The notes under the pieces were generated by a model. The model made no database searches. It worked only from the letters and a program-made list of their open reading frames with translations, and was not told the origin of the DNA. A DNA stretch of 51,354 nucleotides, from positions 1 to 51,354 of the IMG/VR virus record IMGVR_UViG_3300048114_000266; one strand, written 5' to 3'. The stretch comes from a virus. A program made the position numbers and the translations under genes. Position 1 is the first letter of the stretch. Each line of letters opens with the position of its first letter. This document shows, in pieces, positions 16,021 to 51,354 of this stretch.

Positions 16021-16075
16021 GGGTTCGCACCTACTACCCCCTAACTGCCATACGTACTTAAGCCTGTCGGCGTTA
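16021..16075 (-). promoter_or_regulatory. Promoter-leader cassette
   Basis: Gene-strand gccgacagg-CTTAAGTA-cgtatggcagttagggggtagtaggtgcgaaccc-ATG. Confidence 0.6.
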
Positions 16076-16768: not shown

Positions 16769-18244
16769 CTATGCCTTGTCGACGTGCGACGACGTCGACG
16801 ACCCCGAAGACGACGACCGGCGGCTTTCCGTATAGATAGCGTACCGAAGCGCGTCGGCCGCGTGGTCGTCGACGTCGCTACCGCCGACGTCTTCTTCGGT
16901 GTAGCCAAGCAATTCCTTCCGCGTTTCTTCGCACCGTTCAGCGACCAACAGCCCCGGCCGACCGTCGGCGTCTTCCCGAAGTCGATACCGGACTTCGTCA
17001 ATCCCGGCGTCGACTGACTTGTCGGCCTTGCCCGCTTTCCACCCGCGCGACCGCATTTTCTGAATGTCGCCGGGTTCGTGTTCGGAATGGATTCGGCCGC
17101 TTGGCTTGTCTGAAAGCCAATATTCGTCGTGTCGCGGCCCGCCGATTATGTCTTCGACGTGCGTCCCCGAACGGTAAAATTCGTCTACGACGATATATTG
17201 CCCGGCGTGGGTCTTCGCTATTTCAAGCATGACGCGGGGGTCGTCCCACCCGGCGTCGTAGCCATACATGCGCCACGACCCGCCGATTGCCGTATCGTAT
17301 TCGGGGATTGTCCCGTCGGATTCGACGTCGACGACGTGACTATGCCGGCGGAAGTCCGAATACACACGGCCTTCGTCGGCTTCGAATGACCCGTGTAGTG
17401 CTTGGTTTTCCCTCCCCGTTCCGCCGTGAATCCGCCGGATTCGCGCCCGGTCGTCTTCCGTTAGGAATGGGTTATTATCGGTCGACGCGGTGATTAACTT
17501 CGTCCGAATGTTCAGCGTATTTCCGTCGGCGGGGTCGACACCTTGTTCTAAAATGTCCCATGCGTCGTTAAACCCGTTCCCGGTCGTCGTGATTAGGATA
17601 CAGCGCGGGCCGGCGGGCTTGTAGTCTAAGCGTTCGCCTATCGTCTTCCGAACGCCGTTCAGGTCGTCGTAATATGCGGCTTCGTCAAGCCACGCGAATG
17701 AGAATTTGCCACCGTCGTAGCGGTTCGGCTTGTCGGCCGACGCCAAGATAATGACCGACCCGTTTATCAGCGTGATTACGCCGTCTTGTTTGCTGAACGA
17801 CCGGACGATTGGGGAGTTTTCCGGGTCGCCGTCGCCCAAGAATGGGTCTAAATTCTCCCCCGGAAGTTCTTCGAAAAGGACGGGGTACGTCGTCTTTTTC
17901 GATTCGGCGTAGGTCTTCCCCATAGCCAAGACGCGCGCCGGGGCGAAGTCGTTCGCCAAAGCGACTTCGATACAGGTTCGCGCCCCGGTGACTGACTTCC
18001 CCGAACGGTAGCCGGCGACTATGCCGATAATGTCGAAGTCCCCGGAATAGACGGCCGTCCGCGCTTCCCGCTGGGGTTTCCAAAACGCCCACGTAATATC
18101 TATGTCAGTCCCGTCGACGTCGACGACCGCGCCTTCGCGCCGTAGAAGTTCGACGTCTTCGTCGGATAGGTCGGCCGCGCCCGGCGCGAATATCGGCGTG
18201 CCGTCGGGCGCTGTTAGCCGCGTCGGTTCGGAAGTCGTCGACAT
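16769..18244 (-). CDS. terL: Terminase large subunit
   Basis: ORF track, 491 aa; Walker A GYRSGKS, Walker B-like WLDEAAYY, C-terminal acidic nuclease-like region ending DHAADALRYA. Confidence 0.8.
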   Translation of the reverse strand: MSTTSEPTRLTAPDGTPIFAPGAADLSDEDVELLRREGAVVDVDGTDIDITWAFWKPQREARTAVYSGDFDIIGIVAGYRSGKSVTGARTCIEVALANDFAPARVLAMGKTYAESKKTTYPVLFEELPGENLDPFLGDGDPENSPIVRSFSKQDGVITLINGSVIILASADKPNRYDGGKFSFAWLDEAAYYDDLNGVRKTIGERLDYKPAGPRCILITTTGNGFNDAWDILEQGVDPADGNTLNIRTKLITASTDNNPFLTEDDRARIRRIHGGTGRENQALHGSFEADEGRVYSDFRRHSHVVDVESDGTIPEYDTAIGGSWRMYGYDAGWDDPRVMLEIAKTHAGQYIVVDEFYRSGTHVEDIIGGPRHDEYWLSDKPSGRIHSEHEPGDIQKMRSRGWKAGKADKSVDAGIDEVRYRLREDADGRPGLLVAERCEETRKELLGYTEEDVGGSDVDDHAADALRYAIYTESRRSSSSGSSTSSHVDKA

Positions 18245-19607: not shown

Positions 19608-19664
19608 GGGTTCGCACCTACTACCCACTAACGGGGCTACGGTAATAAGTGTGTCGCTGTTGGC
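19608..19664 (-). promoter_or_regulatory. Promoter-leader cassette
   Basis: Gene-strand cagcgacacaCTTATTAccgtagccccgttagtgggtagtaggtgcgaaccc-ATG. Confidence 0.6.
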
Positions 19665-22706: not shown

Positions 22707-22765
22707 AAGGGTTCGCACCTACTACCCACTAACGGCCATACGTACTTAAACCTGTCGCCGGTACA
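22707..22765 (-). promoter_or_regulatory. Promoter-leader cassette
   Basis: Gene-strand ggcgacagg-TTTAAGTA-cgtatggccgttagtgggtagtaggtgcgaaccctt-ATG. Confidence 0.6.
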
Positions 22766-24039: not shown

Positions 24040-25233
24040 TCAGTCGAAGATTTGGTGCGTGTTCACGGCCAAGACCTTGCCGTCGTCGCGGTCGGGAAGG
24101 TCGACCCACGCGGGGGCGTAGTCTTCGGCGGTCGAACGGTCGCACACGCCGACGGCCTTTTCTTCGAAGTGAACGCCGTCGCCGGGGACGTCACCGAAGA
24201 CGACGTCGCCGTCGGCTTTCTCCCCGTCGGCCGCCCGGACGTCGATATTCGTGAAGTCGGTCGTGATTGCGACAGCGACGCACACGGGCACGTCGTCGGC
24301 GGCTTCCCACGCGGCGGCGATTGCGTAGGGGTCGAAGGACACGTCGGTCGGCTTGAACACGCCCGTCGGGTGGCGGCGGGCGAAGTCGACTTCGTCGCTG
24401 TCGTCGTCAGCGTCTTCGAACTTGGCAAGCATGTCGCGACCGACGCGGTCGACCGTGTCCGAATCGTCAGCGAAGTCGAACATGTGGCCGTGAATTTCGA
24501 CCGATTCGACGGTGCCGGTGTCGGGGTCGACGACGAAAGCACCGTGGCGACCGTTCGCGACCGTGCGAAGGTCGGCCCGCTCCCGAAGGACGTCAAGCGC
24601 GTCGCGAACGTCGTCGACGACGTCGTAATGTTCGGCGACGATACGGTCGGGTTCGAACCATTCCGCAAGGCCGGTCGCGAAGTCGAAGTCGGCCCCGTCG
24701 TCGCGCGTCGACACGAACCGGATAACGTGACGGTCGTCGTCGTTCATGGGTTCGTTCACCGCAAGGGCGAACGGGTCCGTGACGTCGGCGGCGGCGTCGT
24801 CAAGGTTGCGGCGGGCGCGTTCGTGGGCCGGCTTGTCAGCGTCGCCGTCGTCGGCGTCGGCGACTTCGACGACCGTGTCTTCCGGGTCGCCCTTGCGCGT
24901 GTGTTGGGTGACGTAGTCGCGACGCTTGTTCGACTTCGCCGCGCCGACCGTGATTGCGTCGGGGGATTTGTCGGACGCCGCGACGAAGAAGTATAGCGTT
25001 TGGTCGGTGTCGTCGTCGCTGACGTAGTGGCCACGAAGGGCGACTTCGGCCGAAGCGTTCCCTTGGCCGTGCCCGTTCACGTAATCGGTCGACACGACGT
25101 CGCCTTCGACGACGCGGTCGGTCTTGGTCGTGTATCCGCCCGTCAGCGACACGCGAAGGGTGTCGCCTTCTTCGACGCTGTCGGCAAGTTCCGCGAACGT
25201 TACGAAGTCGTCGGCTTCGGTGGTTTCGGTCAT
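24040..25233 (-). CDS. Hypothetical acidic protein
   Basis: ATG at 25233 within ORF track 24040..25245; begins MTETTEADDF; preceded by the cassette. Confidence 0.6.
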   Translation of the reverse strand: MTETTEADDFVTFAELADSVEEGDTLRVSLTGGYTTKTDRVVEGDVVSTDYVNGHGQGNASAEVALRGHYVSDDDTDQTLYFFVAASDKSPDAITVGAAKSNKRRDYVTQHTRKGDPEDTVVEVADADDGDADKPAHERARRNLDDAAADVTDPFALAVNEPMNDDDRHVIRFVSTRDDGADFDFATGLAEWFEPDRIVAEHYDVVDDVRDALDVLRERADLRTVANGRHGAFVVDPDTGTVESVEIHGHMFDFADDSDTVDRVGRDMLAKFEDADDDSDEVDFARRHPTGVFKPTDVSFDPYAIAAAWEAADDVPVCVAVAITTDFTNIDVRAADGEKADGDVVFGDVPGDGVHFEEKAVGVCDRSTAEDYAPAWVDLPDRDDGKVLAVNTHQIFD

Positions 25234-25296
25234 GGTGGTTCGCACCTACTACCCACTAACGGCCATACGTACTTAAACCTGTCGCCGGTACACTAC
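25234..25296 (-). promoter_or_regulatory. Promoter-leader cassette
   Basis: Plus-strand sequence 25234-25296 is near-identical to 22707-22768. Confidence 0.6.
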
Positions 25297-27684: not shown

Positions 27685-27743
27685 GGTGGGTCGCACCTAC
27701 TACCCACTAACGGGGCCACGGTAATAAAGGTGTCGGCGTTACA
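27685..27743 (-). promoter_or_regulatory. Promoter-leader cassette
   Basis: Gene-strand acgccgacacc-TTTATTA-ccgtggccccgttagtgggtagtaggtgcgacccacc-ATG. Confidence 0.6.
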
Positions 27744-32198: not shown

Positions 32199-33821
32199 CT
32201 ATCTGTTGGTTTCGAACCGTGACGCCGGCCGTTGCGACCCGGTGACGTGGTCGATGACCTTCGTCGACACGGTCGGCATTTTGCCGTCGCGTTCGTACCG
32301 CTCCCGTGACGCCACGACGTCGACCTTGTCGGTCGGCGCGGGGCCGACGTCGACCGCTACGACGTGCGTCCCGCCGTGGCTACGGTAGTGGTCGACCCCG
32401 ACGACTTCGCCTTCGAAGACCGTGCCGTTATCGTCGGCCCATACGGTCGCGCTGTCGCCGACTTCGGCCGCGTAGACGTTCGCCGCTATGCCTTCCGAAT
32501 CCATCGTCGTGGCGTCGAAGACCGTCTTCGCGCCGTCGGCGGTCGGGTGGGCCATGCGCGGATTGTTCGGCGCGCGTAGCGTCAGCGTGTCGGTCGCGTC
32601 GGGTTCCGTCGTGATTGGTTCGTACCGGGAGCAATCCGGCGCGTGGTCGTATGGGGCCGGCGCGTACCGGCCGCAAAACGCACACTTGTCGACGTCGCCG
32701 CCGGCCGCGTCGGGGCCGCCGTCGAAGCGGTCGTCGCGATAGTCGACGCCGCCGTCGGTCGCTGTCGGGCGGTCGATACGGTCGTGTGCGAAGACGTCGT
32801 CGGGGTCGACGGTCGTGCCGTCGATATGGTAGCGCGCCCATTCGGAAGACCGTGCGCCGTCGTCGTCTTCGTGGTCGTCGAACCACCCTTGCGTAACAAG
32901 AATGACGTGTTCGTCGGTGTCTTCGAAGTAGTGAATGAATACTTCGGCGGGGACGGTGTAATAGGGCTGAACCGCCGCGTTCCCTCCCGAATAGGCGCGG
33001 AAGTCGATACGGAACGGTTCGCCCGGTTCGGGCGATTCGCCGCCGTCGGTCGCGGCTTCGGGGCTATCAGTTTCACTTTCACCGCGCGGGGTGTCGTGGT
33101 CTTCGTCGCTGTCGACGAACGCTTCGAAGACGTCGGCCGCGCTGTCGCGAAGGTCGTCGCGCACCATGTGGTCGCGGTCGTCTTCGTCGGCGTGGTAGAC
33201 GTCGGCGCGAAGGACACGGCCAAGCCGGGACATTTGACCCTTCGGCCCGCGCGTCGATATGACCGGCGACCCGTGGGCGGGCACGCCGAAGCGGTGAATG
33301 CCGACGGGTTCGCCGTCCGACGTTTCGTCGCCCGTGTCGAACGTGACTTCGAATAACTCCCCGTTCGCGTAGTTGTATTTGACCGACGTGACGGTGCCCC
33401 GAATCGTCTTCCGATTGCCCTTCGCGCGGGTCGACATGTGTTCGACTTCGATAGTGTCGCCGCGTGCGACGTCGCCGACGTCGAACGCAAGTTCGCCGTT
33501 ATCCGCGAAGTCGCCTTCGACGTCCGGTTCGACGTCGCGAACGACGCGCATGTCGACGCCCGTCGTGAACCGGCCGCCCGAATCCGTCGACTTGACGAAG
33601 CCGCCGTCGGTAATCAGGAACGAATACGACCGGGCGTTCGCGCGGTCTAACGACGCTTCGACGACGGTGCCGTCGTAGTCGCCGTAATCGACGCCGACCT
33701 TGTCGACCGTTAGATTCGACTTCGGGAGGAAAGACGCGCCGGACACGCTGACTTCGTCGCCGACTTCGATTTGTTCGACAGACGTCACGGCTTCGGTCGT
33801 GGTTTCGGTGGGTTCGGTCAT
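32199..33821 (-). CDS. Large hypothetical protein
   Basis: ORF track, 540 aa; begins MTEPTETTTE on the cassette. Confidence 0.6.
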   Translation of the reverse strand: MTEPTETTTEAVTSVEQIEVGDEVSVSGASFLPKSNLTVDKVGVDYGDYDGTVVEASLDRANARSYSFLITDGGFVKSTDSGGRFTTGVDMRVVRDVEPDVEGDFADNGELAFDVGDVARGDTIEVEHMSTRAKGNRKTIRGTVTSVKYNYANGELFEVTFDTGDETSDGEPVGIHRFGVPAHGSPVISTRGPKGQMSRLGRVLRADVYHADEDDRDHMVRDDLRDSAADVFEAFVDSDEDHDTPRGESETDSPEAATDGGESPEPGEPFRIDFRAYSGGNAAVQPYYTVPAEVFIHYFEDTDEHVILVTQGWFDDHEDDDGARSSEWARYHIDGTTVDPDDVFAHDRIDRPTATDGGVDYRDDRFDGGPDAAGGDVDKCAFCGRYAPAPYDHAPDCSRYEPITTEPDATDTLTLRAPNNPRMAHPTADGAKTVFDATTMDSEGIAANVYAAEVGDSATVWADDNGTVFEGEVVGVDHYRSHGGTHVVAVDVGPAPTDKVDVVASRERYERDGKMPTVSTKVIDHVTGSQRPASRFETNR

Positions 33822-33879
33822 AGGGGTTCGACCTACTACCCACTTGCACCCGGTGGTACATAAAGGTGTCGCCGTTGGT
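33822..33879 (-). promoter_or_regulatory. Promoter-leader cassette (variant)
   Basis: Gene-strand cggcgacacc-TTTATGTA-ccaccgggtgcaagtgggtagtaggtcgaacccct-ATG. Confidence 0.55.
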
Positions 33880-34356: not shown

Positions 34357-34574
34357 TTGTACGGGCCGAATTCTTCGTCGCCGTGTTCGTCTTCGAAGAC
34401 GCCGATAGCGTATAGGGCCAAAGCCCCGACCCCAGCGACCGATAGCCCGCCGACCGCTACGCCGGCCCACATGCCGGCCACGCGCATGGCTAAGCCCGAC
34501 GCCCCAGCGACGAATGCCACGACACCCGCGACAGCGATAGCGGCCACGGGGACGGCTATGTGCTTGGTATTCAT
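34353..34574 (-). CDS. Small membrane protein
   Basis: ORF track, 73 aa, two hydrophobic helices. Confidence 0.45.
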   Translation of the reverse strand: MNTKHIAVPVAAIAVAGVVAFVAGASGLAMRVAGMWAGVAVGGLSVAGVGALALYAIGVFEDEHGDEEFGPYK

Positions 34575-35377
34575 GTGTTCGTGTCTAACAAGGGCGCTTG
34601 CATGAATTTAGTGTTCACCCGGCCGTCGTCGCGTTCGGTAAAGACGTGGTACGGGTTCCCGTGGCCGGTGACGAACCGCACGTAGTCTTCGCTGATTGCG
34701 TCGACAATATTCGGCATGTATTTGTTCGACATGCGGGCTTCGGTGAACGATTCGGGCGGGTCTTGAAGCCATTCGAAGCCGTCGTCGTCGTGTAGTTTCA
34801 CGCGGGCGCTGTCGTTATCGCCCTTGCCTTCAAGGACGAACGTACCGACGTCGTCGTCAGACGCGACGAAGTTCCCTTGCCCGCTCCCCGCGCCGGATAG
34901 TTCCGCGACGTCGGTCCCACGGTCCCACCGTTCGACGGGAATGGTCACGAAGACGTTATACCCGTGTTCGTCTTTGACCGGCGGGACGTCGACCGGCGAC
35001 CCCTTGACGCTGTCGGGGTCGACACCCGACATTTCGTATTCGACGCCGTCGGCCTTGAAGTCTAAACTGTAATTATCCCAATTGTAATCTAACTGAACGA
35101 CGTCGGCGTTTTTCGCGATACCAAGCAATTCGTCTAACTTGCCGGTGTCGACGCCAATCGCGAAGGTGTCTTCGACTTCGTAGTGTTCGAAGTCGGTCGC
35201 GTCGACGGCTTGCCGCGACAGCGCCACGTTCGCCGCGTCTTTCTTGCGAACGCGAAGGCGGTCGGGTTCGAATTCGAACACGGCTTCTAAGTCGGGCGAC
35301 ACGGCGTCGACGCCTTCGGTAATCGTTTCCCAAATGCTTGCGTCGGCAATCGTTTCGACAGTAGGTTCGTTTGTCAT
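34571..35377 (-). CDS. pcna: PCNA-like sliding clamp
   Basis: ORF track, 268 aa. The segment RLRVRKKDAANVALSRQAVDATDFEHYEVE...FAIGVDTGKLDELLGIAKNADVVQL follows the pattern I recall for haloarchaeal PCNA N-terminal domains; alignment done by eye only. Confidence 0.55.
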   Translation of the reverse strand: MTNEPTVETIADASIWETITEGVDAVSPDLEAVFEFEPDRLRVRKKDAANVALSRQAVDATDFEHYEVEDTFAIGVDTGKLDELLGIAKNADVVQLDYNWDNYSLDFKADGVEYEMSGVDPDSVKGSPVDVPPVKDEHGYNVFVTIPVERWDRGTDVAELSGAGSGQGNFVASDDDVGTFVLEGKGDNDSARVKLHDDDGFEWLQDPPESFTEARMSNKYMPNIVDAISEDYVRFVTGHGNPYHVFTERDDGRVNTKFMQAPLLDTNT

Positions 35378-35438: not shown

Positions 35439-35521
35439 TGCGACGGGCCGGATTCGAACCGGCGAACCCCTACGGGACACGGTCTTAAGCCGTGCGCGTT
35501 TGGCCACTTTGCTACCGTCGC
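35439..35521 (-). tRNA. tRNA-Leu, anticodon UAA
   Basis: Hand fold of GCGACGGTAGCAAAGTGGCCAAACGCGCACGGCTTAAGACCGTGTCCCGTAGGGGTTCGCCGGTTCGAATCCGGCCCGTCGCA: 7-bp acceptor stem, anticodon stem CACGG/CCGTG with loop CTTAAGA, long variable arm, T-arm GCCGG-TTCGAAT-CCGGC. The D-stem is weak. Confidence 0.7.
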
Positions 35522-35765: not shown

Positions 35766-36224
35766 CTACCCACTATCAGACACGGGGGCGACCCCGTCGT
35801 CGTCTAAGTCCGTGGCCGTGCGTCTGACGAATTCCCGAACCGCTTCGACGTCCGGGCGGCCCGGCGTGTCTTGTAACGTCGCGACCGTCGCTTGGTCGAC
35901 CGCCGCGTCGAATTCGGGAGCGTTCGCCGCTTCTTCGAAGGCGACACGGTGGTCGTCGACCTTTTCGATAGCGACGTCGGCCCATTCGGGTAGGTCTTCG
36001 TCGTCGATTGCGTCAAGCGTGGCCGCGTAGACGCGGGGTTCGGGCACGTTCACTTCGGCCGCAAGCGTCGGCACGTCGACTTCGGGGACGCTGACGTCGA
36101 ATTTTACCTTCGTCCGAAGTTCGTTCGTCCCCAATTCGGACGCCTTTGGCTTCGTCTTGCGGATTTTCAGGTCGCCCGTTTTCCAATCGACGACTACCCA
36201 CCCGGTAATCTCCTTGTCAGTCAT
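35766..36224 (-). CDS. Hypothetical protein
   Basis: ORF track, 152 aa; ATGA overlap with the upstream gene. Confidence 0.5.
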   Translation of the reverse strand: MTDKEITGWVVVDWKTGDLKIRKTKPKASELGTNELRTKVKFDVSVPEVDVPTLAAEVNVPEPRVYAATLDAIDDEDLPEWADVAIEKVDDHRVAFEEAANAPEFDAAVDQATVATLQDTPGRPDVEAVREFVRRTATDLDDDGVAPVSDSG

Positions 36225-37642
36225 TCGTACCGACCCCGAAGTTCAAGGCCGCCGGTATAGTCGGGAATGTGGGCATACGCGTCGTCGACTAACGCCGTAA
36301 TCAGGTCGTCTTTGTCGGGCTGTTGGCCGACGTCGACCTTCGGGCGTTCGGCCGCTATGACTTTCAGCGCGTTATACGGCAAGAAGCCGTCGTCGTCGGC
36401 CGCGTCGAAGGCTTCGCGACGGTCTTGCACGGGAATGTCTCCGCGCCCGAATTCGATTCGAAGGTCGGGACCGTCGTCGTTCAGTACGTCAGCGTGGTGG
36501 GGGCCGTCGTCTTCGTCGTCGGCGTATTCGTGGTTTGCGTCGGGGCCGACACGCGGGTCGTGTTCTTCCCAATTGTCGACGCCAATCCACATGTCGCACG
36601 GCTTGCAGTAGCGTTGCGCCCCAGCGTCAGATAGTTGGCCGTGGTTAACGCGGGCACCATTCGAAGTTTCGCCGGGTGGCCCGCCGCTATCCGTGTCGGT
36701 ATCCGCTCCCCGTTCGGCCAAGTCGTCGGCGACGTCGGCGTCGGTCGCGTCTTCTTCTTGCATGTCGATTTGTTCGGCCGCGCTTTCCGATTCGGGGTCG
36801 GGTTCGTCGTCGGGAAGCGCGTCGTCGACGTCACCGCCGTCGATATAGTCGACGCCGTCGTCGGGTTCGTGGTCGGCTAAGGCCGTCTGATTCGGGTCGT
36901 GACGTGGGTCGTCTTCGCTGATTGGGTCGCCGGGTTCGACTATGTCGACGTCGTCGCGAACGGTGTCGTAGTCTTCGGCCCACCCCGGCACGTCCGGGTC
37001 TTCTTCGGTCGCTTCGGTGCCCGTCGTGAACACGTTCCGCGTCACGTAGGCGTAGCCGATAATCGCGGGGCGACTGTCGCCCGCGCCGTTCGGGTGAATG
37101 ACCCACACGCGGGTACGAAGCGGTTCGATAACGGGCGGCGGATTGCTGTCGGAAACGGGGATTTTGAGGTTCAGCCCACGGTCCCGACATTCTTCGATAT
37201 AGTCTTCGGGCGTTTCCCAATTGGTCGCGCCGACCGACATTAGGACGTCGTGGGACCGGGCCGACGTTATGTCGGCGTAGTGGTCGCCGTCGAAGCCGTA
37301 CCGCGACAGACGGTCGAAGTGGTCGGGAATGTCTTCGCCGGGCGTGGTCGTGTTCCCGTCGGCGTGATAGTGGGCCGCGAACGAATTGCCGGGGAATGCT
37401 TTCCACCCCGGAATAATCGCCCCGCGCCCCGTGTGTTCGCGGTATTCGACGGGTTCGTCTAATTCCACGAAGCGCGGTATCTCCCCACCTTCGGCCGACA
37501 GCGCGGCGACGTCGCTACGAATGTAGCATGATTGTGGCTTTAGGTGGCCGCAACCACGTTCCCGGTTATCTATGCTTTCGCGTTCGTCGCCGTCGGTCGC
37601 CTTGCCTAAGACTTCGTCGACGGCGTCGGTTAGTGTCGTCAT
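36221..37642 (-). CDS. Large acidic protein with a C-terminal motif shared with the TFB-like protein
   Basis: ATG at 37642 within ORF track 36221..37651; C-terminus PYNALKVIAAERPKVDVGQQPDKDDLITALVDDAY. Confidence 0.55.
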   Translation of the reverse strand: MTTLTDAVDEVLGKATDGDERESIDNRERGCGHLKPQSCYIRSDVAALSAEGGEIPRFVELDEPVEYREHTGRGAIIPGWKAFPGNSFAAHYHADGNTTTPGEDIPDHFDRLSRYGFDGDHYADITSARSHDVLMSVGATNWETPEDYIEECRDRGLNLKIPVSDSNPPPVIEPLRTRVWVIHPNGAGDSRPAIIGYAYVTRNVFTTGTEATEEDPDVPGWAEDYDTVRDDVDIVEPGDPISEDDPRHDPNQTALADHEPDDGVDYIDGGDVDDALPDDEPDPESESAAEQIDMQEEDATDADVADDLAERGADTDTDSGGPPGETSNGARVNHGQLSDAGAQRYCKPCDMWIGVDNWEEHDPRVGPDANHEYADDEDDGPHHADVLNDDGPDLRIEFGRGDIPVQDRREAFDAADDDGFLPYNALKVIAAERPKVDVGQQPDKDDLITALVDDAYAHIPDYTGGLELRGRYE

Positions 37643-37700
37643 GGTTCGCACCTTGCGACCTATCGTTTCGTCGTAGGGGGTAAAAGCGTGTCGGTAATAT
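37643..37700 (-). promoter_or_regulatory. Promoter-leader cassette (variant)
   Basis: ggtgcgaacc box directly abuts ATG 37642; accgacacgc-TTTTAcc and TATATTA lie further upstream. Confidence 0.45.
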
Positions 37701-37840: not shown

Positions 37841-39358
37841 CTATTCGTCGTCGTAGTCGACGCCGGGGAGGTTCGTTAGGTTCCACCCGTTCGACGACAT
37901 GCCCGTCCCGGCCGAATGCGTGTCGTCGCACGACGGGCACGAAAGACCCAGCGACCGACTGACTTCCGTGCGGCGGCCGGCCGAATAGTGGGACGTGCGT
38001 AGCATGGGAACCTTGTCAGCGCCACACGTCGGGCACGTCGACAGCGCGTCGAAGACGTCGCGACCCTTGTCCGTGGCGACCCACGCCGCGTCGGGGTCGT
38101 CGACGTCGGTATCGCGGTCGTCGGCGCGGGCAATCAGCCCCGTGTCTTCGGCGTCGCGTAGCACCGTGCGGAAGTAGCGGAACTTGTGGGCGAACCCCTT
38201 CGGGCGGCGTAGTCCCGTGCCGGGCTTTCCCGTGTCGCCGCGCCCCGTCGAAACGCGACCTTGTTCGCCGGTCTTGACCGGGCCGACGTCTTCGGGGTCG
38301 ACTTCGTCGTCGCTGTCGAACATGCCGCCGTCGGTCGCGGCGTCGACGCCCGCCACGTAGTTGCCCCAGTAAATCACGTCGCGAAGAAGCGACGTGATAT
38401 GATTCGCGTCGAAGGACTTGTGTTCAGACATGCGCGCTTCGACGTCGTCGGGAAGGTCGGCGTCGTCGACCGACCACACGGTCGCGCCTTCGCACGACGG
38501 GCACACGTCGCCGAAGTGTTCGTGCGTCTTCTTGGCCGGCGTTTCCCATTCGTCGCCGCAACGGGAGCATTCGAACGTGTCGACGTAGGCTTCGGCGGTC
38601 TTGTTCATGTCGTCGTCGTATTCCGGGCTGACGTGGGCCTTGTCGTTCACCGCGCCGACGTATTTCTCAAGCGCAAGCGTGCGAACGACGTTCGCGAACG
38701 TCGTCAAGTCGTCGTCTTCGTAGTCGTCGACCTTCGCTTCCCATTCGTCGACGTCTTCGAAGTCAGTCGACACGCCGTCGTCGGGAATAGTGGCGCGGTA
38801 GAAGGTCGGCGCGTCGGCGTCGGTCGGGTCGACGTCGTCGCGGTCGGTCATGCGGCGGCCGACGACGACTTCGAAGGGGCAATCGTCTTCCGGGCACGTA
38901 TGCCGCGCCGTGTGGTCGTCGTCATATTCGGCTTCGTGGCCGCCGTGAACGGGGCACGTCACGCGGCCGGCGAACGATAGCGATTCGACGGGCGCGTCGC
39001 GGTCGTAGGATTCGACCACCTTGTGAACGATTTGGCCATCTTCGACCGTCGTGTGCGTGTTCCGTTCGTGGCGGACCATGAACGTCGTGTCGCTGTCGCT
39101 GACGTGACGAAGGTAGTGGTCACGGTCGCCGTGTTCGTCGTCAAGCACCGCGTCGACGGTGACTTCGCCGCCGTCAGCGACGGCGTTCCGGGCGCGGAAT
39201 TCAGCGATTGCGGCTTCGGCGTTGGCCCGAAGCGTGTCGACGGCCGGGGCGTCGTCGGGGAGGTTCGCCGCGACGGGGGCGACTTCGTTAATGTAGGCCG
39301 CAAGGCGGGCGGTCGAAAACCGTTCGACGTCGACGTCGGCTTCGGTGGTTTCGGTCAT
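37841..39358 (-). CDS. Large hypothetical protein with several Cys pairs
   Basis: ATG at 39358 within ORF track 37841..39370; begins MTETTEADVDV; motifs CPVHGG, CSRCGDE, CPSCEG, CPTCGAD. Confidence 0.6.
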   Translation of the reverse strand: MTETTEADVDVERFSTARLAAYINEVAPVAANLPDDAPAVDTLRANAEAAIAEFRARNAVADGGEVTVDAVLDDEHGDRDHYLRHVSDSDTTFMVRHERNTHTTVEDGQIVHKVVESYDRDAPVESLSFAGRVTCPVHGGHEAEYDDDHTARHTCPEDDCPFEVVVGRRMTDRDDVDPTDADAPTFYRATIPDDGVSTDFEDVDEWEAKVDDYEDDDLTTFANVVRTLALEKYVGAVNDKAHVSPEYDDDMNKTAEAYVDTFECSRCGDEWETPAKKTHEHFGDVCPSCEGATVWSVDDADLPDDVEARMSEHKSFDANHITSLLRDVIYWGNYVAGVDAATDGGMFDSDDEVDPEDVGPVKTGEQGRVSTGRGDTGKPGTGLRRPKGFAHKFRYFRTVLRDAEDTGLIARADDRDTDVDDPDAAWVATDKGRDVFDALSTCPTCGADKVPMLRTSHYSAGRRTEVSRSLGLSCPSCDDTHSAGTGMSSNGWNLTNLPGVDYDDE

Positions 39359-39420
39359 AGTGGTTCGCACCTACTACCCACTAACAGGGCTACGGTAATA
39401 AAGGTGTCGGCGTTGCACCA
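39359..39420 (-). promoter_or_regulatory. Promoter-leader cassette
   Basis: Gene-strand cgccgacacc-TTTATTA-ccgtagccctgttagtgggtagtaggtgcgaaccact-ATG. Confidence 0.6.
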
Positions 39421-39488: not shown

Positions 39489-40538
39489 ATGGAAACGGAA
39501 CCAGATACCGACGCGACCGACCGGATTCGTTCGATTGCCGAACGGGTCGGGTTCGACGACAGTATCGGCGACTTGGCTACCCAAGTGTTCACGAACGCCG
39601 TCGAAGAAGGCGTCGTCACCGCCGTCGTCGACCGCGACGAAAGCGGTCGCTTCGAAGGTGAAACGCGGAACTACCCGGCGGCCGCATACCCGGCGGCCGT
39701 GTATGCCGCCGCGCGGATTCGTGACATTCCGACCAAGCCGTCCGAAGTCGCTGACGCGGCCGACGTCGACGCTGACGTCGACGCTGTCGGTGACTATTAC
39801 AAGGACATGCTTGGGGCGCTACCCTACACCGTCGAACCGGAAGACCCGGTCGATTGGGTGCGCCGGCTTTGCGACGACTTGGACGTGTCCCCCGGCTTCG
39901 AAACCGACGCCGTCGACTTGTGCGGCGACGCTGTCGGTGCGAACCTGCATAACGGCAAGGCCGTGTCCGGGTTCGCCGCCGCCGTCGTCTACGCGACGTC
40001 GGAATATCGCGACGCTGACGTCGGGCAAGACCGTATCGCCGAAGTCGCCGACGTGTCGCCCGTGACGATTCGGAACCAGTACCGCGACGTCTTGGAATTG
40101 TGGGAACGGGCGGCCGAACCGGGCGACCCCGACGTGATTCGGGCCGCCGTTAACGACGTGTGTGACCGTATCGACGGGCTTCCCTCCCGCGTGCGGGCCG
40201 ACGTCGCCGACCTTGCCGCCGACGCTATCGACGCCGACGCCGACTTCGTCAGTAACACCGACCCCGACGGCGTGGCGGCCGGTATCGTCTACGTGGCGGC
40301 GAAAGACGCCCGCGTCGACGTCAGTCAAACCGAAGTCGCTGACGTCGCGGGCGTGTCGAAGTCGACCGTCGTGAACCGGGTAAACGACGTCCGCGATTGG
40401 CGGCGTCGGAAGGACTTCGAAGCGAAGGAATACAATACGCTAAAGCAAATCGCGGCCGACCACGGCGTCGACGTCGGGCAACAGCCCGAACGCCCCTATC
40501 TTATCGACCGCTTAGTCGAAGCGGGTGTCGACGCATGA
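39489..40538 (+). CDS. TFB/TFIIB-core-like transcription factor with no N-terminal zinc ribbon
   Basis: First ATG of ORF track 39432..40538. SGFAAAVVYATSEYRDADVGQDRIAEVADVSPVTIRNQYRDVLEL closely follows the pattern I recall for the second cyclin repeat and HTH of archaeal TFB; two further similar modules are present. The N-terminus has no Cys pairs. Confidence 0.6.
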   Translation: METEPDTDATDRIRSIAERVGFDDSIGDLATQVFTNAVEEGVVTAVVDRDESGRFEGETRNYPAAAYPAAVYAAARIRDIPTKPSEVADAADVDADVDAVGDYYKDMLGALPYTVEPEDPVDWVRRLCDDLDVSPGFETDAVDLCGDAVGANLHNGKAVSGFAAAVVYATSEYRDADVGQDRIAEVADVSPVTIRNQYRDVLELWERAAEPGDPDVIRAAVNDVCDRIDGLPSRVRADVADLAADAIDADADFVSNTDPDGVAAGIVYVAAKDARVDVSQTEVADVAGVSKSTVVNRVNDVRDWRRRKDFEAKEYNTLKQIAADHGVDVGQQPERPYLIDRLVEAGVDA

Positions 40539-41892: not shown

Positions 41893-42309
41893 ATGACAGC
41901 ACTACAAGACTTTGCGGAATGGTTCAAGGCGCGGGAAACGAAAATCGAAGCGTGGTATAGCGACGGCGTCGGCCGCTTCGCGTTCCGCGTGACCGTCGAC
42001 GGCCAAGCGTTCGTATGTGCGGCCCGGTCGTCGCCACCGAAGGACGGGAAGACGTCGATAATGGCCCGTGTCGCGGGGAAGGCGCAAACGTCAGACGCGC
42101 TTATCGCCCTTCGATTGCCGGGCGGGATTCGTGTCTTCGACCCGGTGACGGTCTTGGATACCGGGGAGCGTGACACGCCCGCCCAATCCGACCGTCGCGA
42201 ACGCGACGAATCATGGGTCGCGGTCGACCTATCCGTCGCTTGCACGTTCAGCGAATGGTACGACGGTGACGCGAAGCCGCTTCGGTTCGCCGACGTCACC
42301 GAAGCCTAA
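41893..42309 (+). CDS. Hypothetical protein
   Basis: ORF track, 138 aa; a short gcgaaccct leader precedes the ATG. Confidence 0.5.
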   Translation: MTALQDFAEWFKARETKIEAWYSDGVGRFAFRVTVDGQAFVCAARSSPPKDGKTSIMARVAGKAQTSDALIALRLPGGIRVFDPVTVLDTGERDTPAQSDRRERDESWVAVDLSVACTFSEWYDGDAKPLRFADVTEA

Positions 42310-42338: not shown

Positions 42339-42351
42339 CTTTTTGTTTTTT
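42339..42351 (+). terminator. Oligo-T tract, candidate archaeal transcription terminator
   Basis: ccTTTTTgTTTTTTc about 30 nt downstream of the stop of 41893..42309. Confidence 0.45.
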
Positions 42352-42431
42352 CACGCTGACGACGTAGGAGTATGACGGGGTCGTAGCCACCGGCTAACGA
42401 CCCCGTTAGTGTAGGTCTAAGCGTTTGTGTT

Positions 42432-42485
42432 GTTACTACTACACTACACTACACTACTACTAACTAACACTATACTACTACACGA
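42432..42485. repeat. AT-rich low-complexity ACTAC pentanucleotide tract
   Basis: ttactactacactacactacactactactaactaacactatactactacac, immediately upstream of the promoter of the 42535 gene. Confidence 0.7.
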
Positions 42486-42493
42486 CCACTTAA

Positions 42494-42506
42494 CCGACAC
42501 TTATTT
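42494..42506 (+). promoter_or_regulatory. BRE/TATA-like promoter of the regulator gene
   Basis: ccgacac-TTATTT about 30 nt upstream of ATG 42535. Confidence 0.5.
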
Positions 42507-42534
42507 GCAGTTAGTGGTCTTTTGGTGGTCTTGC

Positions 42535-43729: not shown

Positions 43730-44160
43730 TCGCCACGGTCGCGGTCGCTTCGTCCCTCCCGATACAGGTTCGGCCGGTCAAGGTCGACCCCAAGTTCTTC
43801 GGCGATTGCCGCTTGGTTAGAAATAGACACTTCTTGGCGGCGTTCCATTTTCCGAACGTCGCCGTGTATGTCTTCGACTTCGTCGCGAAGGTCGGCGTGC
43901 ATTTCTTCGAATTCTTCGCGTAGTTCCGTGTTCGCTTCGTCAAGGCGGTCGAACCGACTTTCTGAATCGGCAAGGTGGCCGTCCGACGTCGGGTCGTCTT
44001 CGTCGCCGAAGACGCGCCGATACACCGGGACCGCGAAGGTAAAGTGCCGTCTGACTAACCACGCCACGACGACCACAAGGCCGCCTAAGACGAACGTCAC
44101 CGCCCAAAGCCCCAGCGACGACGGCGCAATCGGGCCGACTTGCAGTAGTGTCGACGTCAT
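43726..44160 (-). CDS. Membrane-anchored coiled-coil protein, last gene of the tail operon
   Basis: ORF track, 144 aa; N-terminal hydrophobic helix, then charged helical region. Confidence 0.5.
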   Translation of the reverse strand: MTSTLLQVGPIAPSSLGLWAVTFVLGGLVVVVAWLVRRHFTFAVPVYRRVFGDEDDPTSDGHLADSESRFDRLDEANTELREEFEEMHADLRDEVEDIHGDVRKMERRQEVSISNQAAIAEELGVDLDRPNLYREGRSDRDRGD

Positions 44161-50418: not shown

Positions 50419-51354
50419 CTAACGAACCCCCGCGCGGTCGTTAGTCTTGTCACCGACACGTTCCGCAATCTTGTCGGCAAGTTCTTCTAACGTCCGGCGG
50501 TCGACGTTCGTCGGGTCGAATTCGCCCGACAAGTCGATTGTAATGCCGTCGATTGCGACCGACGTCCCGCCGCCACCGCCGCCCGACGCGGCCGCACTAA
50601 CAAGCGGTTCGGGAATGACGGCTTCGCCCTTGTGAATTTGGGCGACGCCGTCGGATTCTACCATGCCGCCCGAAGCCATTCCCCGGACTTGTTCGCCCGC
50701 CCATTCACCAAGCCCGTGAATCGGGTTATTCGTCATTACGTTTTCTATCGTATTCGCCGCTCCGGGGTTATTTTCAGCGAATCGTGAACCCGCCCTTCGT
50801 GCCGGACCCCACCCGTCGCCACCGCCGGCTATTTCGGCAAGGATTTGGCCCGCCGTCAGCGTCGGCCATACGATTGCGCCGACTATCATACCGCCCGTGA
50901 TAGTCCCGAACCCGATTGCGGCGGCTATCAGCCCGCCCGTGACCGCGCCGAACGGTATCGACTTCAATAGTTGGCCGCCCGATATGACCTTGAACGACAT
51001 GGCCCCGACGACTAACGCCGCGCCGATTACGGGCCACCCCAGCGCGCCGACGATTATGCCGGCCCCAATCGTCGCCCACGACAGCGCGCCGACGACGTCG
51101 CCCGCTTTCAGTTTCCCCCATGCGATTGCACCGACGATTAGGCCGGCCCCGATTATCGGCCACCCGACGGCGGCGATTATCAGCCCGGCGGTAATCGTCC
51201 CCCATTTCAGCGCGCCCAAGACGTCGCCCGCTTTCAGTTTCCCCCATGCGATTGCACCGACGATTAGGCCGGCCCCGATTATCGGCCACCCGACGGCGGC
51301 GATTATCAGCCCGGCGGTAATCGTCCCCCATTTCAGCGCGCCCAAGACGTCGCC
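50419..51354 (-). CDS. Tape-measure-like tail protein, C-terminal segment (same gene as 1..583)
   Basis: ORF track 50419..51345; the TTG start there is an artefact of the window edge. Contains two identical 42-aa repeats plus one diverged copy, then a Gly-rich C-terminus. Confidence 0.55.
   Translation of the reverse strand, partial: GDVLGALKWGTITAGLIIAAVGWPIIGAGLIVGAIAWGKLKAGDVLGALKWGTITAGLIIAAVGWPIIGAGLIVGAIAWGKLKAGDVVGALSWATIGAGIIVGALGWPVIGAALVVGAMSFKVISGGQLLKSIPFGAVTGGLIAAAIGFGTITGGMIVGAIVWPTLTAGQILAEIAGGGDGWGPARRAGSRFAENNPGAANTIENVMTNNPIHGLGEWAGEQVRGMASGGMVESDGVAQIHKGEAVIPEPLVSAAASGGGGGGTSVAIDGITIDLSGEFDPTNVDRRTLEELADKIAERVGDKTNDRAGVR
51103..51354. repeat. Two perfect tandem copies of a 126-bp in-frame repeat inside the tape-measure-like gene; a further copy forms the window start (1-127)
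   Basis: The string gacgtcgcc-cgctttcag recurs at 51094, 51220 and 51346, giving a 126-bp period; encodes the 42-aa unit LGALKWGTITAGLIIAAVGWPIIGAGLIVGAIAWGKLKAGDV. Confidence 0.8.

Follow-up and report, generated by a model that had tools for sequence, protein, structure and literature searches.

A conserved TA-step-rich repeat array abutting the promoter of a small regulator gene in haloarchaeal tailed viruses: a possible operator

The DNA analysed here is the 51,354-nt IMG/VR record IMGVR_UViG_3300048114_000266 (positions 1 to 51,354, hereafter the window) of a haloarchaeal tailed virus with a GC content of 0.61. A tract of ACTAC-like repeats lies between geneA and geneB, the latter encoding a putative regulator with a ribbon-helix-helix (RHH)-like N-terminal part and, at its C-terminus, a winged helix (Table 1). 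An oligo-T run, a hairpin-capable inverted repeat and a GT-rich flank precede the tract, and a putative core promoter and two direct repeats follow it before the start of geneB. A preliminary description of this DNA had reported the tract, and its extent is borne out by a G-free run of 51 nt. Its place before the promoter of the regulator gene is also correct, as the run abuts the block of geneB that resembles a TATA box and a transcription factor B recognition element (BRE). However, the tract is not located at a strand switch as had been supposed, because both flanking genes are read on the plus strand and the switches lie near 39.4 kb and 43.7 kb. Similarly, the T-run described as directly preceding the tract is upstream of it, but ~80 nt away, with the hairpin of 10-bp stem in between.

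The composition of the tract is extreme for this genome. Elsewhere in the window, G-free and C-free runs reach at most 31 nt, and chance would give about 1e-4 such runs of at least 54 nt. The tract has a GC content of 0.33-0.35 in comparison with 0.61 genome-wide, and the 13 TpA steps in its 51 nt are the genome maximum (mean 1.64 +/- 1.37). Tandem Repeats Finder detected the array at periods of 3, 5 and 21, and ACTACACTAC with at most one mismatch occurs 10 times in the window against 0.84 expected, half of these occurrences being inside the tract, which itself is single-copy. In helix stability the tract ranks as the second least stable 60- or 100-bp segment of the genome and the least stable among the non-coding ones (z about 4.5). 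The earlier statement that it is the only low-GC island thus holds for non-coding, low-complexity DNA; however, segments at 45.37, 46.8 and 47.05 kb within the tail genes are equally unstable. An extension of the geneB coding sequence through the tract (the open reading frame, ORF, is open from a GTG at 42427) was rejected, and the tract was judged to be non-coding because in-frame stops are found upstream of the ATG in seven of nine relatives. A scan for bacterial-type promoters and terminators returned nothing relevant, and a scan of IMG/VR for ACTACACTACACTAC gave 116 matches, mostly unrelated microsatellites. A packaging site is unlikely by inference from the large terminase gene lying ~24 kb away, and no integrase, which would bear on an integration site, was found among the proteins scanned.

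Comparisons were made among 18 distinct loci, including the window, in which a homologue of geneB or of its N-terminal domain heads a transcription unit. A short-period, TA-step-rich and strand-asymmetric array is present upstream in all 18 (17 besides the window), the isolate Hardycor1 included. Nine of these loci (the window, L123, L146, L124, L002, L127, L143, L144 and L145; clade 1) have full-length geneB homologues with 49-81% identity. The array is a one-armed G-free run in eight of the nine, with lengths of 51, 51, 46, 55, 54, 57, 31 and 41 nt; in these eight it stops 38-52 nt short of the ATG, directly next to the BRE/TATA-like block. The ninth locus, L145, has the array flipped onto the other strand. 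Comparison of the window with L123 showed that the promoters are identical and that the tracts differ by insertions and deletions of whole 5-nt units, yet both are 51 nt long.

In the remaining nine loci, homology is restricted to the N-terminal domain or is more distant, and each of them has a dyad in place of the one-armed array. In six of them (L120, L122, L128, L130, L132 and L133) the dyad is formed by (TTAC)3-4, a spacer of ~12 nt and (GTAA)3-4. L139 combines a left arm of mixed TAC/TTAC units with a right arm of the GTA type, and L137 and Hardycor1 pair a TAC-type left arm with a C-free right arm. The arms of the dyads are 17-29 nt long, and in the dyad-type loci with both arms measured the element ends 55-104 nt before the ATG. 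The Hardycor1 element consists of CCTACACTACTACTACC, 23 nt and GTAGTAGGGTAGC, lies upstream of HrrHc1_265 and is the highest-TpA segment of that genome; it is not described under the terms searched for in the text of the Hardycor1 paper. In all 12 related loci tested for stability, the homologous element is the least stable 60-bp segment.

The six TTAC-type loci and L139 also have two GC-rich hairpins with compensatory changes before the dyad, and a single GC-rich hairpin is found in Hardycor1. Of the TTAC-type loci and L139, most also have a (GT)n run farther upstream, with 7-11 units in clade 2 (element positions in Table 1). The clade-2 hairpin loops are often TTCG, GAAG or GCAA, and an additional 15-bp hairpin is formed by (TTAC)n and (GTAA)n. 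Across the whole clade-2 element (~140 nt), two genomes with an overall identity of only 77% agree at about 97%. This element could correspond to a structured RNA or to a site of cruciform formation.

The element follows the RHH-type gene rather than geneA. Homologues of geneA in L120 and L122 are not followed by a tract, and the repeat element there stays upstream of the RHH-type gene. Conversely, L143 and L145 have a different upstream gene (another ORF or the tail tube gene), and the T-run, the array and the regulator gene are still together. GeneA, 66% identical in L002, is a neighbour in close relatives only and lies outside the module. A CTTTTTnTTTTTTC T-run precedes the element in 10 of 10 TAC/ACTAC-type metagenomic loci (the nine of clade 1 and L137), whether the gene before it is geneA, the tail tube gene or another, suggesting that the oligo-T run is likely a terminator shielding the module from upstream transcription. 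In the window, L123, L124, L127, L002, L143-L146 and L137, a G-run (GGGG or GGGGG) always lies 20-27 nt after CTTTTTnTTTTTTC. This fixed spacing could instead, or in addition, mark a TATA-like box and the start of a transcript through the tract. Two viruses provide negative cases: none was found anywhere in the 35 kb of HRTV-28, in which the homologue lies inside an operon, and none in the first 50 kb of HHTV-2, in which tblastn found no geneB-type or L120-type match.

These comparisons bear on whether the tract is a neutral, slippage-generated microsatellite in a tolerant spacer, which might give occasional promoter-spacing variants. The whole-unit differences beside an identical promoter in the window and L123, and the varying (GT)n run of clade 2 (7 to 11 units), are what slippage would produce, and the earlier suggestion of a slippage-prone tract is upheld to this extent. 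However, the run length is held at 51, 51, 55, 57, 54 and 46 nt in loci whose geneB proteins are 52-81% identical, and a run of such length is unexpected by chance. The element also survives rearrangements and spans distinct virus groups, including an isolate. Furthermore, the tract is identical in L124, L125 and L126, which are three independent assemblies of one virus from three samples, and L128 and L129 are likewise identical. Since the length is held at ~50 nt and the tracts agree across independent assemblies, the locus is not a hypervariable contingency locus, and a contingency (phase-variable) repeat was rejected on the same identities. A purely neutral origin is thus very unlikely.

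The relatives keep the place against one promoter, a length of ~50 bp in clade 1, an extreme TpA density and a strand free of G, whereas the register, the unit (TAC, ACTAC, CTAAC or TTAC), the orientation and the number of arms are not conserved. Such a pattern would also be shown by a sequence-nonspecific upstream promoter element, in which flexible TA-step DNA, readily bent or melted, boosts or insulates the promoter without a dedicated binding protein; the highest TpA density of the genome and the location directly upstream of the TATA and downstream of the terminator-like T-run fit it as well. However, such an element would leave unexplained the full exclusion of G together with C at about one third of positions, as pure A/T would serve better. 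The clade-2 elements are moreover palindromic and ~97% identical in sequence, and the unit type tracks the type of the protein: the N-terminal strand of geneB homologues reads RLPR(I/V)S mostly with ACTAC, QPGxRID mostly with TAC, and KIGVRID with TTAC. A flexible element acting alone therefore appears improbable.

The geneB protein has no Pfam family match. The AlphaFold2 model, built with a 54-sequence alignment (mean predicted local distance difference test score of 81), starts with a coil and two helices at the N-terminus; a long helix (55-78) and a Lys-rich, disordered linker come next, and the C-terminal domain is modelled with confidence as a winged-helix fold. The N-terminus carries the motif 'RIDEDLWE.F...HGRTRG...E.ALR', and one weak PDB profile match was obtained, to 2k6l, which we take to be an RHH repressor (E 0.25). 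From the secondary-structure pattern, the motif and this one match, an N-terminal RHH fold is plausible. Thus, of the label 'RHH/winged-helix regulator' given earlier, the winged helix agrees with the predicted structure and the RHH part is plausible only.

The putative core promoter between the array and the direct repeats is the most conserved part of the nine-locus alignment, and it resembles the CGACAC-TTTATTAC core of eight promoters that are repeated in the window. Its GACCACT has a perfect inverted partner, AGTGGTC (42513-42519), so that a 7-nt inverted repeat brackets the TATA. This partner and the two 11-nt direct repeats form a candidate high-affinity operator, and the inverted repeat around the TATA plus the direct repeats has a classic, operator-like geometry. 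The direct-repeat layout is also found in L146 (AAAGTGGTGGG/AAAGTGGTGTT) and is less regular in L123. L124 has TACCAC and GTGGTA arms instead of GACCAC and GTGGTC, changes that look like covariation. The ACTAC unit of the tract is one base away from the ACCAC box beside the TATA. On the other side of the tract, 'TAGCGTT..GTGTTGT' of the left flank is conserved in the window, L123, L146, L124 and L002, and the hairpin is poorly conserved within clade 1. A motif search with GTCTAAGCG was uninformative, being swamped by codon-like GTCGAAGCG matches.

Table 1. Features of the window and positions of the homologous elements in relatives (positions refer to the window unless a relative is named)
Feature	Position	Strand	Basis or remark
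geneA, 138 aa, no family match	41893-42309	+	ORF list, GC3 frame test
Oligo-T run TTTTTGTTTTTT, likely archaeal terminator	42340-42351	+	Sequence; putative function
Perfect 10-bp inverted repeat ACGGGGTCGT / ACGACCCCGT, hairpin-capable	42375-42406	.	Repeat analysis
Left flank: TAGTGTAG (inverted tract-unit copy), GTCTAAGCG, GT-rich GTTTGTGTTGT	42407-42432	.	Inverted repeats I4-I6
Tract: G-free array of TAC/ACTAC/CTAAC units	42433-42483	.	G-free on plus strand; 10 TAC, 13 TpA steps
geneB core promoter (putative): GACCACT, TATA-like ACTTAAC, BRE-like CCGACAC, TATA-like TTATTTG	42484-42510	+	Nine-locus alignment
Two direct 11-nt repeats TTAGTGGTCTT / TTGGTGGTCTT	42511-42532	+	Over expected transcription start
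geneB, 218 aa	42535-43191	+	RHH-like N-terminus: coil 5-13, helices 14-28 and 35-50
GGGTAGTAGG copy	2723-2732	+
GGGTAGTAGG copies	39370-39379, 33832-33841, 27696-27705, 25245-25254, 22718-22727, 19617-19626, 16030-16039	-
Large terminase gene	16769-18244
PCNA-like protein gene	34571-35377
tRNA-Leu gene (anticodon TAA)	35439-35521	-	Amid early genes, adjoining PCNA-like gene
TFB-like protein gene	39489-40538	+	Two TFIIB repeats and C-terminal tail resembling a helix-turn-helix
Five large early/middle protein genes, 397-616 aa	20128-21978, 24040-25245, 32199-33821, 36221-37651, 37841-39370	-
126-bp tandem repeat	51067-51354		2.3 copies, 96% matches
Identical 127-nt termini	1-127, 51228-51354
Clade-2 element	L130 2780-2915, L133 2830-2950, L128 2800-2905, L120 400-500, L132 2790-2880, L139 1800-1900
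Hardycor1 element	44078-44135

The tract may thus be an array, close to the promoter, of degenerate boxes to which the adjacent regulator binds; we favour this reading over the others, but only tentatively. Of the three candidates in the preliminary description (operator array, replication origin or unwinding element, and slippage-prone tract), the operator array is the best supported, on circumstantial evidence: the array abuts the promoter, stays with the gene through rearrangements and shifts its unit type with the N-terminal type of the protein. The lack of an array in HRTV-28, where the homologue does not have its own promoter, is counted in its favour, as are the negative result for the first 50 kb of HHTV-2 and the ~97% identity of the clade-2 element in otherwise diverged genomes. 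Each array has 7-10 TAC cores, direct and inverted layouts are both found among the relatives, and the layouts interchange (one-armed, dyad or flipped) as RHH array binders tolerate.

In the proposed mechanism, the cassette would comprise, in order, the oligo-T terminator, a flank of ~80 nt, the TA-step-rich array of ~50 bp, the BRE/TATA, the paired 11-bp direct repeats and the regulator gene, and it would be portable within this group of haloarchaeal tailed viruses. The regulator would be a small two-domain protein (RHH-like plus winged helix), and the array a series of binding boxes that are degenerate and low in specificity. Nucleation at the GTGGT/ACCAC boxes, by the protein of the cassette itself or by a partner regulator, would be followed by cooperative spreading along the array. 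The spreading would set the transcription level of the regulator gene, either as autoregulation or as an early/late switch. The identity of the binding protein, its action as a repressor or an activator, its RHH fold and the roles assigned to the terminator and the promoter are inferred from sequence and comparison.

Several observations weigh against an operator array. The spacing of TAC inside the arrays is irregular (3, 5, 7, 13 and 15 nt) and no longer period is kept, a pattern less expected of a fixed protein lattice than of selection on composition or helix instability. In clade 2, the dyad does not abut the nearest TATA but precedes it by at least 30-35 nt. The pairing of unit and protein type has exceptions in L144 and L145 and amounts to about three phylogenetic events. 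The RHH assignment of geneB has neither Pfam support nor significant PDB support. Finally, the GTAGT motif shared with the repeated promoters may merely reflect the common descent of the latter.

These repeated promoters carry the reverse complement of the tract unit, as the preliminary description had indicated for a conserved leader. GGGTAGTAGG has eight exact copies in the window, each in a repeated promoter-leader unit, and 11 occurrences with at most one mismatch against 1.0 expected. The unit (eight copies, ~75 nt) consists of a box GTGTAGTGTAAC, CGACAC-CTTTATTAC, GTTAGTGGGTAGTAGG, a Shine-Dalgarno-like GGTGCGAACC and the ATG, and several of the genes behind it begin with identical residues (ATGACCGAAACC...). 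Minus-strand forms of the tract unit (GTAGTGTA, GGGTAGTAGG and GTTAGTGG) are found at fixed places in all eight, and GTGTAGT occurs near the start sites of the repeated promoters of Hardycor1. These positions hint at one recognition motif shared by the tract and the repeated promoters, and possibly at a wider regulon. However, the repeated copies are paralogous and therefore do not provide independent evidence for a regulon. Among the relatives, L123 and L124 keep a GTAGTAGG-like leader and L127 and L002 do not, and a scan of IMG/VR for the leader motif gave zero matches.

The complementarity between tract and leader motif also raises the question of whether the tract acts as RNA. A plus-strand transcript with ~10 CUAC repeats, arising by read-through or from a start of its own, would then act as an antisense sponge for the 5' GUAGUAGG of the eight leaders, and the clade-2 element would be a structured hairpin RNA. 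The frequent TTCG, GAAG and GCAA loops of clade 2, the strong folding of the region (z -6.65) and the G-run after the T-run in clade-1 loci and L137, a possible mark of a transcription start, agree with this. However, the tract is preceded by a strong oligo-T run, the hairpin lacks conservation in clade 1, and no Rfam match was found (E up to 1). L127 and L002 keep the tract but not the leader motif, and the flipped array in L145 would change the transcribed strand. An RNA role is therefore regarded as highly improbable.

Small viral RHH proteins that bind repeated sites at or near their own promoters include SvtR of SIRV1, AvtR of AFV6 and F55 of SSV1. The operators of these crenarchaeal viruses are longer defined sites, whereas the present units are simple repeats of 3-5 nt. 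A closer likeness is provided by ParG of plasmid TP228, an RHH protein that coats a row of degenerate ACTC boxes (8-12 tetramers, in either orientation) located upstream of the operon encoding it (PMC3130281). As in O_F-parH, and in the heptads of the omega repressor and the metboxes of MetJ, the gene for a small protein of RHH type is directly preceded by many short degenerate boxes. ParG arrays have direct or inverted boxes in an AT-rich context and derive affinity from box number (PMC3130281); the corresponding boxes here are TAC, ACTAC or TTAC. However, ParG boxes of 4 bp alternate regularly with 4-bp spacers whereas the spacing here is irregular, and no ParA-type partner was found among the window proteins scanned. 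The present system also differs in belonging to an archaeal virus with a TATA/BRE promoter and in the extra winged-helix domain, and its RHH fold and DNA binding are putative.

HF2 and other members of Haloferacalesvirus have intergenic repeats that carry or flank promoters and keep their position among relatives, including a 'complex bidirectional promoter region' with 12-bp boxes (PMC8707807). The eight promoter-leader units of the window are the direct analogue of these repeats, in particular of the HF2 class I intergenic repeats and of the Hardycor1 repeats that give identical N-termini. The tract itself is different: HF2 repeats are dispersed and 29-58 bp long, whereas the tract is a single-copy simple array that lies upstream of a promoter and has no sequence similarity to them. 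As the HF2 class needs multiple copies that each bear a TATA box and a transcription start, the tract was rejected as a member. No description of the element was found in the literature searched, including searches with the repeat-unit strings. It would be a repeat-array operator beside a small regulator gene, here in archaeal viruses with TATA/BRE promoters.

The remaining candidate is that the tract is the DNA-unwinding element of a viral replication origin, with the flanking hairpins, the motifs and the RHH-plus-winged-helix protein forming the initiator-binding part. Unwinding elements typically evolve with conserved instability and unconserved sequence, and the tract and its homologues keep length and instability while the sequence drifts, being the least stable non-coding DNA of the window and the least stable segments of the related loci tested. 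GC-rich inverted repeats lie beside the tract, in clade 2 together with the (GT)n run, and the haloarchaeal virus SNJ2 has a documented bipartite origin of palindrome and hairpin that is recognised by a winged helix-turn-helix domain (PMC13107129). However, the winged-helix fold is generic, and an origin need not lie so tightly and consistently against a single promoter. The absence of such an element from HRTV-28 and the first 50 kb of HHTV-2 also argues against this role.

Cumulative G-C skew along the window peaks globally at 42432, on the left edge of the tract, and reaches a broad minimum around 20-27 kb. After removal of the tract the maximum is near 42.5 kb, on a plateau at 41-43.5 kb; thus, the exact position of the peak is fixed by the G-free tract itself. 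All gene classes have a negative third-position GC skew when read on the coding strand (-0.22 for the late class and -0.38 for the early one), so the turning points mark changes of gene class and strand and are not diagnostic of an origin. In Hardycor1 the skew similarly follows the direction of transcription. The place of the skew maximum and the conservation of the element in relatives agree with the earlier origin or unwinding candidate, but the skew is explained by gene class, strand and the composition of the tract and weighs neither for nor against an origin.

The haloarchaeal origins recognised by Orc1/Cdc6 have an AT-rich unwinding element flanked by inverted origin recognition box (ORB) repeats with G-strings (PMC3528665). 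The locus resembles them in having AT-rich intergenic DNA of low stability near G-rich or hairpin-forming sequence. However, it has no adjacent orc1/cdc6 and no ORB pair: no inverted repeats of 20-40 bp bracket the tract, and G-runs occur on its upstream side only. The AT-rich part is also much shorter (only ~50 bp) and still 33% GC. Searches against Pfam, PHROGs and NCBIfam gave no match to Orc1/Cdc6, AAA, MCM or Rep among the ORFs scanned, which include every ORF of at least 300 aa outside the tail block at 46.3-51.3 kb. An iteron origin was rejected, as the 21-nt period (2.3 copies) is found only in the window and the relatives peak at 23/26, 24 or 12 nt or have no dominant period. Taken together, an unwinding element is unlikely. 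The fuller proposal, in which the array with its flanking hairpins and the RHH-plus-winged-helix protein are origin and initiator, and the array serves, as plasmid iterons do, as unwinding element, initiator-loading platform and autoregulatory operator at once, is still more doubtful.

The first 127 nt of the window are identical to the last 127 nt, and the window is therefore probably a complete genome of ~51.2 kb that is circularly assembled or permuted. A 126-bp tandem repeat is located at the genome junction within a tail-region ORF, and its copy number may be an assembly artefact. Nearly all genes are on the minus strand, except for a plus-strand island of 4.3 kb (39.4-43.7 kb) with the TFB gene, four small ORFs including geneA, geneB and the Hjc gene. 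The encoded proteins include a portal, a protease, the large terminase, a tail tube protein, a PCNA-like protein, an Hjc resolvase and a TFB-like protein, and the baseplate protein is ~47% identical to its counterparts in HHTV-2 and HVTV-1. A TFIIB-domain gene lies 1-3 kb from the RHH-type gene in every metagenomic relative with flanking genes listed, and tblastn of the phage collection found no match to the TFB-like protein of the window. Megablast of 38.0-46.5 kb against phage and plasmid collections also gave no match, and no isolate is close in DNA. No provirus relative was found in the Genome contigs searched, and a metagenome scan for relatives returned only one contig, which was already known.

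The five large early/middle proteins listed in Table 1 have no significant Pfam, PHROG or NCBIfam match, and they probably include the replication machinery beyond PCNA. The tail, baseplate and fibre genes at 45.3-47.2 kb have a lower GC content (0.52 at 46-47 kb), hold the other least stable segments of the genome and may be a horizontally acquired host-range module. Before many genes (e.g., at 37652, 14185 and 8677), GGTGCGAAC(C) is followed after 0-6 nt by the ATG, with or without the repeated promoter, and the same signal is found in L124, L127 and L002. It is probably a Shine-Dalgarno-like translation signal common to this virus group.

Gene regulation and replication control of haloarchaeal tailed viruses are almost unknown. 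The present element is a conserved and recognisable cis element tied to a conserved regulator gene near a virus-encoded TFB, and its presence in Hardycor1, a virus of Halorubrum coriense, offers a testable way into an early/late switch or an origin. If the array supported replication, it might seed a haloarchaeal vector, and an array-based origin would be the first defined for these haloarchaeal siphovirus-like viruses, with a new architecture of 3-5-nt repeats. If the array is a binding platform, the short-box logic of bacterial RHH partition and repressor systems would extend to archaeal TATA/BRE promoters.

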